A stretch of DNA of 64,000 bases, from assembly GCF_053078305.1 (NCBI RefSeq), contig NZ_CP166879.1. One strand, 5' to 3'. Shown piece after piece: positions 1 to 3,000 of this stretch. Made by a program: the position numbers. Positions within the stretch are counted from its first letter, which is position 1; each line of letters begins with the position of its first letter.

Positions 1-3000
1 AACTAAAATTTTTAGCACAGATGAATTCATCATCAACAAATTCACTATATGGATAATATCCATTCAACGCATATGATTTATGATTTTATTAGTCTGAGTT
101 ATTTTTGTAGGGCTATATTTAAATTATTAAACTCCACCGATTCAGATTAATATCAGCAATAGAAAGATAGGAAATCACCAATTCAATAACATCATCAATG
201 AAACATATTGTAGAATTAATTTAAACAAGGCGTTCCATTCAACCAGAACGCCCCTTATTTACTCTCATCACCCCGCAAACTGCCTGAACAGCGCCTTACC
301 CTTAACCAGTCTCGCGCCCAGCCAGCCGCCGAAAAGCGACAGCAGCAGCGCACCGCTGCACGGCAGAACAATCCACAATCGCCAGTCTGGCTCCCACGGA
401 AAATCAAACACTTTCGCCTGCAACACTGCCAGCGCCGTTTCCGCACCAATTGCGGCCACCAGGCCGGAAACAAACCCAAGCATGGCGAACTCACACCACA
501 ACGTGGTACGCAGCAGTTTTTTCCCCGCACCGAGTGTGCGCCACACCACCAGCTCCTGATGACGCTGACGCATTCCCACCTGCACCTGTGCCAGCAACAG
601 CAACATACCGCAGGCGGTGACCAGCACCACCATCACCTCCAGCGCCCGACTTACCTGCTCCAGCACCTGACCGACCTGTTTTAAAATCGCGCCAATGTCT
701 AACAGGCTAATGGTAGGGAACTGGCGGTTGAGTTGCGTCAACATGCCGTTGCCATTCTCACAGCGGAAACTGGTAAGCCAGCTCTGCGGTTGCCCGTCTA
801 ATGCCCCTTCAGGGAAAATAAAATAGAAATTAGGCCGCAAACTTTCCCAGTCCACTTTGCGCAGGCTGGTCACTTTAGCGCGGAACTCCTGGGTATCGCC
901 CATAAAAGTCACGGTATCGCCGAGGGTAACGTTTAAGCGTTTCGCCAGCCCCTCTTCCATCGACACTTCATCAGCTTTTGGCGGCCAGTTACCGGCGACA
1001 ATCGGATTATGATCGGGCCGCGTATTTTGCCAGGTAAGATTGAGTTCGCGGTTGAGCGCCTCATCTTCATTGCCTTCTGTCGGCTTGCCGTTAATCGCCG
1101 TCAGCCGCGCTCGCACCACCGGATAAAACGATTCCGAGACTATCTGATGTTCCGCGAGGAACGCTTTTAGCGGCGTAACCTGTTCTGTGGCGATGTTGAT
1201 TAAAAAGTAGTTCGGGCTTTCTGGCGGTAGCTGTTGTTGCCAGCGGTCTAGCAGATCGCCACGCAACACCAGCAGCAGCGCCAGCAGCATAAAGGAGAGC
1301 GAAAAAGCTGAAAGCTGGCTTAACGTTGACCACGGCTGACGTAACAGGCGGCTAACCGCCAGGCGCAGAGGCAGCGATTTCAGCGTCATGCGGCGAAGTA
1401 CATTCAGCAGCATCCAGCCCAGCACACCGCACAGCAAAGCCAGTACTACCGCGCCCGCCAGCACCGCCCAGAGCAGCATACTGCCGCCCATTAATCCGGC
1501 AAGCAGCAGCACAACCACCACACTGACAATCGGCAGATAAAACTTCAGCGGCCAGACGTTCGCTACCACATCATTACGTAATACGCGTAAAGGCTGCGTT
1601 GCCAGCAACAAGCGGTACGGTCGTAGCCCCACCAGCAGCGAGATGACTGTCATGGTGCCAAGCGCCCACAGCCACGGCCAGAGACTGGCAGGCGGTAGTG
1701 CAGCAGGCAGAACGGGCTTGAGCAGCACCATCAACACGTTTTCGAACAACAGGCCTATCGCCCCACCGGTAACGGCTGAAAGCGCCAGCACCATCAACCA
1801 CTGACCGACGATTAGCTTACGCAGTTGCGCTCGCCCTGCCCCCAGCGTTTTGAGGATCGCCACCAGATCGTAGCGACTGCGACAGTAATGATTCATCGCT
1901 ACCGCCACTGCTGCCACTGCCAGCAGCAAGGTCAGAAGCGCCGAAAGCAGCAGGAACTGTTGCGAGCGTTCCATCGATCGCCCCAGCGCGCCTTCGTCCT
2001 GTTCCAGACCGTACCAGCGTTGTTCGGGTTTAAGCTGAGGTAACAACCATTTCTCATAGCTGTCGAGCTGGTTCTCGCTGCCGCCGAATTTATAACGCCA
2101 GGTGACCCGACTCCCCGGCTGCACGGCTCCGGTTTTATCGACATCAGCCAGATTCATCATTAGACGCGGAGCCATCTGGAAGGGGTTAAAACCGGAATCC
2201 GGTTCCTGAATCACTTCTCCGGCAATCCGCAAGGTGGCATCGCCCACGTCAATGGTGTCGCCCGTTTTCAGGTTAAGCAGTGCCATCAGGCGTGGGGCCA
2301 GCAATACGCTGCCCGCCTGCGGTTTCAGGCCAGGGGGATTGGTTTGCAGATCGCCATACATCGGGTAGATATCATCCACCGCTTTGACGTTCGCCAGCTG
2401 CGGTGTGTCGCCTGCAAATGTCATGGTGGCGAAAGTCAGCTGCTTGCCGACTTTCAGGCCGCGCTTTTGCGCTTCCTCCAGCCATGCTTGCGGCACTTCG
2501 CGCGAACTGCGCAACGCCCGATCGCCCGCCATAAACTCCCGGCTTTGTTGGCTTAAGCCCTTCTCCATGCGATCGCTGATATTGCCCAGCGCCAGCACGC
2601 AGGCCACCGCCAGGCTTAGCGCCAGCCAGACAATTAATAGCGACGGCGAACGCCATTCGCGCCAGAACCAGCGTGCAATCATGCTTCCTCCTGCAAGTGC
2701 CCGTTCACCAGCCGTAAGCAGCGGTCGCAGCGTGCCGCCAGTTGCAGGTCGTGGGTCACCATAATCAACGTGGTGCCATGCTCACGGTTGAGGGAAAACA
2801 GCAGGTCGGCAATTTTATCGCCGGTCTGGCGGTCAAGGTTGCCGGTGGGTTCGTCGGCAAACAGCACATCAGGTCGACCGTTAAAGGCTCGTGCCAGCGC
2901 CACTCGTTGCTGTTCACCGCCGGAAAGCTGTGCCGGAAGATGATCCAGACGTTTACCCAGCCCTAACTGTTCGAGCAACGCTTTCGCTCCGTTACGACTT

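Follow-up and report, generated by a model that had tools for sequence, protein, structure and literature searches.

Beyond ybbP, at the very start of the window (the whole 64,000-nt stretch of DNA analysed here), lies a short segment of AT-rich DNA, and the question raised by this locus is whether it is an ordinary spacer of the backbone or the edge of something acquired. Here, we document the composition of this segment, its orthology, its presence/absence polymorphism, its terminator and, in relatives, its linkage to an rhs gene. Our preferred explanation, to which we assign a probability of about 90%, is that positions 1-267 are the ybbP-proximal two-thirds of an approximately 430-nt leader of the RhsD type, which would include both a terminator and the upstream region of an H-NS-silenced rhs promoter. 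The features discussed below are the following.

1..226, minus strand: AT-rich distal part of the RhsD-type rhs leader, putative upstream promoter region; orthologue of the K-12 'promoter island' 522099_304 (composition, alignment, K-12 literature)
227..254, minus strand: intrinsic terminator of ybbA-ybbP, GGGGCGTTCTGGTTGAATGGAACGCCTT then GTTTAAATTA (terminator scan, RNA fold)
258..267, no strand: junction zone of the variable cassette (query starts of partial matches, sequences of the alternative alleles)
268..2682, minus strand: ybbP, ABC transporter permease subunit of 804 aa, core backbone gene flanking the cassette (ORF list, annotation of matching records)

Composition and orthology of the segment

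The ORF of ybbP ends with a stop codon at 268-270, so that positions 1-267 lie directly downstream of it, where the sequence-only reading had placed them. That reading had also put the A+T content of the first 267 nt at about 75%. A composition count returns this value for the AT-rich core at 1-228 (74.6%) but not for the segment as a whole (71.2%), since a G+C-rich terminator hairpin sits in the last 39 nt (229-267), where A+T drops to 51%. The contrast with the backbone nevertheless holds: A+T is 44.7% in the whole 64-kb window and 42.3% in ybbP, and of all the 267-nt windows that the 64 kb contain, just 0.036% reach 71.2%.

Elsewhere in the 64 kb, A+T comes near to this value at only two spots. 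One of these (~9168-9646; 70% A+T) corresponds to ~21170-21650 in a relative's record (L001), the intergenic space from which a hypothetical gene and a gene for a YadA-family autotransporter adhesin diverge, within an island between ybbJ and cueR that is missing in K-12. Just downstream of ybbJ, at about 8749-8826 of the window, Rfam matches naRNA4 (CssrE, a nucleoid-associated noncoding RNA or REP-type element; L001 20749-20826, 74.7 bits). The other spot (~37993-38403; 72% A+T) is near an adhesin/type I secretion island, and the annotation of this stretch in relatives names a SiiEA/BapA-related giant adhesin, a TolC-family protein, ybaT and glsA. A query of positions 36500-40000 is covered to at least 80% in only 958 of the 5,426 genomes described below.

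The reference set consisted of 5,426 complete E. coli genomes, in which a megablast search with window 1-267 found the segment in 2,906, at 95-99.6% identity. It is essentially single-copy and chromosomal, and no annotated feature lies under the matches in these 2,906 genomes. The BLASTN comparison proposed along with the original observation thus returned matches in about 2,900 genomes, among them that of K-12, where the match is the spacer between ybbP and rhsD. Three relatives were compared more closely: K-12 strain CIT (with MG1655-like coordinates), O157:H7 PV15-279 and strain 88-3493. In each, positions 1-267 correspond, at 98-99.6% identity, to the 267 nt nearest ybbP in a ybbP/rhsD spacer of about 430 nt. 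When window 1-300 is aligned base for base in all four, O157 differs at one position, 88-3493 at three and K-12 at six, all six of the K-12 differences falling within 1-267 and the remainder of the 300-nt alignment being invariant. Over window 1-3000, the closest relative overall is 88-3493 (99.1% identity), with K-12 at 97.9%.

The segment therefore resembles the 5´ flank of the K-12 RhsD element (RhsD-E subfamily) in being orthologous sequence, with six differences in 267-268 nt, in having the same terminator hairpin and in having the same neighbour, ybbP. It differs by a 1-nt deletion specific to the window, in an A-run at ~121, which is also the single difference from O157. Around this run (118-124), the window reads TTTAAAT, versus TTTAAAAT in K-12, O157:H7 and 88-3493; the difference reflects either an indel specific to the strain or a sequencing error in the homopolymer. 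No copy 100% identical to 1-267 exists among the 5,426 complete genomes, the best being at 99.6%.

At blastn sensitivity, neither a second copy nor a diverged relative of the leader was found in the 5,426 genomes, from which it follows that the leader is specific to the locus of mnmH and ybbP and is not carried with rhs genes generally. Paralogous leaders at other rhs loci were considered and ruled out, as a 'distant' blastn search returned none. A scan of 100,044 species-representative genomes for exact 24-mers gave no matches, a weak null result because exact matching would miss diverged copies and because the E. coli representative may have another allele.

The rhs gene of relatives, the terminator and the putative promoter region

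The sequence-only reading had placed an Rhs element beyond ybbP in K-12, and rhsD is indeed annotated there. In K-12, O157:H7 and 88-3493, the spacer leads into rhsD or a gene annotated as "RHS element core protein", on the strand shared with ybbP and with its start codon in K-12 at the same distance as in the other relatives, 163 nt beyond window position 1. The protein of 88-3493 contains eleven RHS_repeat matches (4.6e-69), DUF6531 and an RHS core domain (2.8e-16). The toxin tip of the gene and the immunity genes vary between strains: K-12 has rhsD-ybbC and remnants, while 88-3493 and O157 have another C-terminal tip. In EDL933, rhsD is described as linked to no vgrG island (PMC7216683).

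Linkage was assessed with a probe joining 500 nt of rhs to 200 nt of leader, counted at a coverage of at least 80%. Leader and rhs 5´ end are contiguous in 2,862 genomes, and practically every leader-bearing genome thus has rhs attached; other rhs paralogues match the probe in its coding part alone, up to the start codon. In the genome of this window, an rhs gene very probably begins at the same distance before position 1, and it is expected to have an ATG that opens MSGKPAARQGDMTQYGG. As the window ends before the gene, its presence here is an extrapolation from 2,862 of ~2,870 leader-bearing genomes.

Two elements can be distinguished within the segment. First, a terminator scan identified a hairpin at 254..227 (1 found versus 0.1 expected) with an 11-pair stem, 14 nt after the ybbP stop. 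The RNA fold is at -16.1 kcal/mol, with z = -3.06 relative to shuffles. With its G+C-rich hairpin, its T-rich tail and its location directly downstream of a stop codon, it has the make-up of a Rho-independent terminator; the T-run in the tail, GTTTAAATTA, is short and interrupted.

Second, the AT-rich part has an orthologue with a history in the K-12 literature. Panyukov and Ozoline (2013) include 522099_304, located at ybbP(+)/rhsD(+), among 78 'promoter islands' of K-12; for this entry, four predictors indicate an association with horizontally acquired genes, and it is given as H-NS-bound "according to all studies" (PMC3661553). As a class, the islands are described in the paper as AT-rich, next to horizontally acquired genes and bound by H-NS, and as binding RNA polymerase with almost no full-length RNA being made, abortive short oligonucleotides being their only product in K-12 (PMC3661553). 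From K-12 record coordinates and the alignment, 522099_304 maps to window 1-223 and to 80 nt outside the window. The likeness thus consists in orthology of window 1-223 to 223 of the 304 nt of the island, whose status in K-12 rests on PlatProm and ChIP, whereas the window is known from sequence orthology. In addition, Shimada et al. report a SELEX site for RpoD holoenzyme in the ybbP>rhsD spacer, flagged HNS, and the predicted rhsD promoter is TTAATA-17-TGTAAT (PMC3946193). This sequence is found verbatim in 88-3493 and K-12, and window position 1 aligns with the T that begins it. Consequently, the predicted -35 hexamer TTAATA starts at position 1 and the remaining core promoter is outside the window, as are the rhs 5´ UTR and start codon in relatives.

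The motif content of the segment was also considered. A sigma-70 consensus scan of 1-300, a simple scan and not PlatProm, found one promoter-like site versus 1.7 expected from dinucleotide shuffles. H-NS has a high-affinity motif, TCGATAAATT, and this showed no enrichment over composition-matched shuffles. Given that neither motif is in excess, any promoter-island or H-NS property rests on A+T content and not on specific motifs that could be verified, and binding at 1-226, where it occurs, would depend on the base composition and shape of the DNA and not on recognisable motifs.

These elements suggest a mechanism. An accessory cassette of ~6.1 kb, comprising an rhs toxin core gene, an immunity gene and remnants, would occupy everything that separates the mnmH stop codon from that of ybbP. 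Read on the minus strand, the direction of transcription of ybbP and presumably of rhs, it would open with a handful of bases of ybbP 3´ flank that the alleles share, followed by the terminator and by ~225 nt of 75% A+T DNA. The intrinsic terminator, borne on the cassette, would end transcription of ybbAP and shield rhs from read-through. The ~225 nt of AT-rich DNA would form the upstream portion of the promoter region of rhs and, by orthology with K-12, may bind the sigma-70 holoenzyme of RNA polymerase and be coated by H-NS. Such a coat could keep a horizontally acquired "orphan" rhs toxin gene of the T6SS type silent, i.e. by xenogeneic silencing. That this particular copy is silenced by H-NS is something we infer from the binding of H-NS and RNA polymerase measured in K-12. 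The parallel with known xenogeneic silencing lies in AT-rich regulatory DNA that precedes an acquired T6SS-type toxin gene and is H-NS-bound in K-12, and H-NS silencing has likewise been reported for the T6SS genes of EHEC (cited in PMC7216683). Our search for literature on the rhsD promoter or on hns mutants returned only the two genome-wide K-12 studies and an in-silico EHEC paper; the parallel differs from established cases in that no direct demonstration of rhs derepression without H-NS was found.

One possibility that goes further is that the leader acts as a regulatory module borne on the cassette and travelling with the rhs toxin gene. It would be more than a passive spacer in that it would rewrite the 3´ UTR of ybbAP by means of its own terminator, silence the toxin through an H-NS nucleation region and possibly give rise to a short plus-strand transcript or a peptide of 33-53 aa. 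We consider this unlikely. Less likely still is that the segment is itself an unannotated gene for a small protein or sRNA, either a 33-aa ORF at 49-150 on the plus strand or a transcript from a plus-strand site at 50-77. The ORF starts with ATG and is the sole one of at least 30 aa inside the segment, and the site at 50-77 matches the sigma-70 consensus at 9 of 12 positions. However, a 1-nt indel alters the C-terminal part and the length of the ORF, which encodes 33 aa here, 40 in K-12 and O157 and at least 53 in 88-3493, and the product has no Pfam match. Promoter-like sites are no commoner than in shuffles, and the K-12 islands are described as giving abortive short oligonucleotides only (PMC3661553). 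No Rfam family matches the spacer, either in a gathering scan of a 27-kb relative or in a scan of the full spacer at E<=1.

The site between mnmH and ybbP

The leader as the edge of a cassette, our preferred reading, makes sense of its distribution. ybbP is present in 5,418 of the 5,426 genomes, versus 2,906 for the leader. Where the segment is absent, genomes begin to resemble the window only at 258, 261, 262 or 265, as judged from the query starts of partial matches; beyond this point, 3-10 nt after the stop codon of ybbP, their sequence is unrelated. The suspicion that the window opens at the edge of a variable region was therefore well founded. An ordinary intergenic region upstream had been named as the finding that would speak against it; the DNA is intergenic, but it belongs to an accessory cassette and not to the backbone.

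Probes of 800 nt (300 nt of ybbP and 500 nt beyond) were used to distinguish the alleles, which are the following.

Allele A, 2,877 genomes: AT-rich leader and rhs island; space between mnmH and ybbP 6.1 kb
Allele B, 1,318 genomes: REP elements and a gene annotated as a DinQ-type type I toxin; space 0.7 kb (L003 11295-12006)
Allele C, 574 genomes: frameshifted Hcp(TssD)-fusion gene and two DUF2931 genes; space 3.55 kb (L004 8466-12009)
Allele D, among the remaining ~650 genomes: REP-only spacer of 140 bp, strain 536 (L006 8989-9128)
Allele E, among the remaining ~650 genomes: terminator-only spacer of 58 bp, strain MS20673 (L007 8981-9038)

Pairwise BLAST revealed nothing common to the alleles between the stop codons of ybbP and the convergent mnmH (ybbB/selU). 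Because the alleles are unrelated between these stops, the leader is part of the cassette rather than of the backbone. The structure that follows ybbP also differs with the allele: C and E each have another hairpin at this place, and B and D have REP elements. The ybbAP transcript thus has an allele-specific 3´ end. Allele C has a terminator and an AT-rich promoter gap of its own. On these sequence comparisons, the gap between mnmH and ybbP is a hotspot for cassettes: it has at least five alleles, none related to any other, and each provides a different ybbP terminator. If the leader were a regulatory module of the kind considered above, both the 3´ end of ybbAP and its chromatin neighbourhood would differ with each of the at least five alleles.

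Allele B puts an annotated DinQ-family type I toxin gene (L003 11706-11789) next to ybbP in ~24% of genomes, away from the canonical dinQ/agrAB locus. Upstream of it is a repeated 'cagtcctcatctagca' motif, and these repeats could be part of antisense regulators.

The same data bear on whether the segment is simply backbone intergenic DNA, a generic terminator/promoter gap that happens to be AT-rich. It is intergenic and holds a terminator, and where present, it is conserved (95-99.6%) to the same degree as the neighbouring core gene. Yet it is missing in ~46% of complete E. coli genomes, all of which have ybbP, and unrelated sequence takes its place from 3-10 nt after the ybbP stop. Furthermore, its presence tracks that of the rhs gene almost perfectly, and the 'distant' BLAST search found no diverged homologue in the non-matching genomes. 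We therefore regard chance AT-richness of a backbone spacer as very improbable. That the segment is a relic of the mobile-element end (IS, integrase att site or prophage edge) that delivered the island is the least probable of the alternatives, since its location exactly at the island boundary and its foreign-like composition stand against a full spacer in which no direct or inverted repeats were found beyond low-complexity AT matches, the lack of a second copy in 5,426 genomes at blastn sensitivity, and relatives with no tRNA, integrase or transposase at the junction. At both ends, the junction coincides with the stop codon of a core gene, an arrangement that agrees with replacement of alleles through homologous recombination in the flanking genes rather than with site-specific insertion.

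In conclusion, the segment is part of a feature already described, the known RhsD locus of E. coli, and the significance of our analysis lies mainly in its correct annotation. The odd composition is explained as that of xenogeneic DNA that is an H-NS target in K-12. The island boundary can be placed no more than 10 nt from the ybbP stop codon, and the site between mnmH and ybbP provides a tidy example of a cassette-exchange hotspot between convergent core genes, at which an Rhs toxin, an Hcp-fused effector, a type I toxin and the empty state are rival contents, each taking the place of the others.
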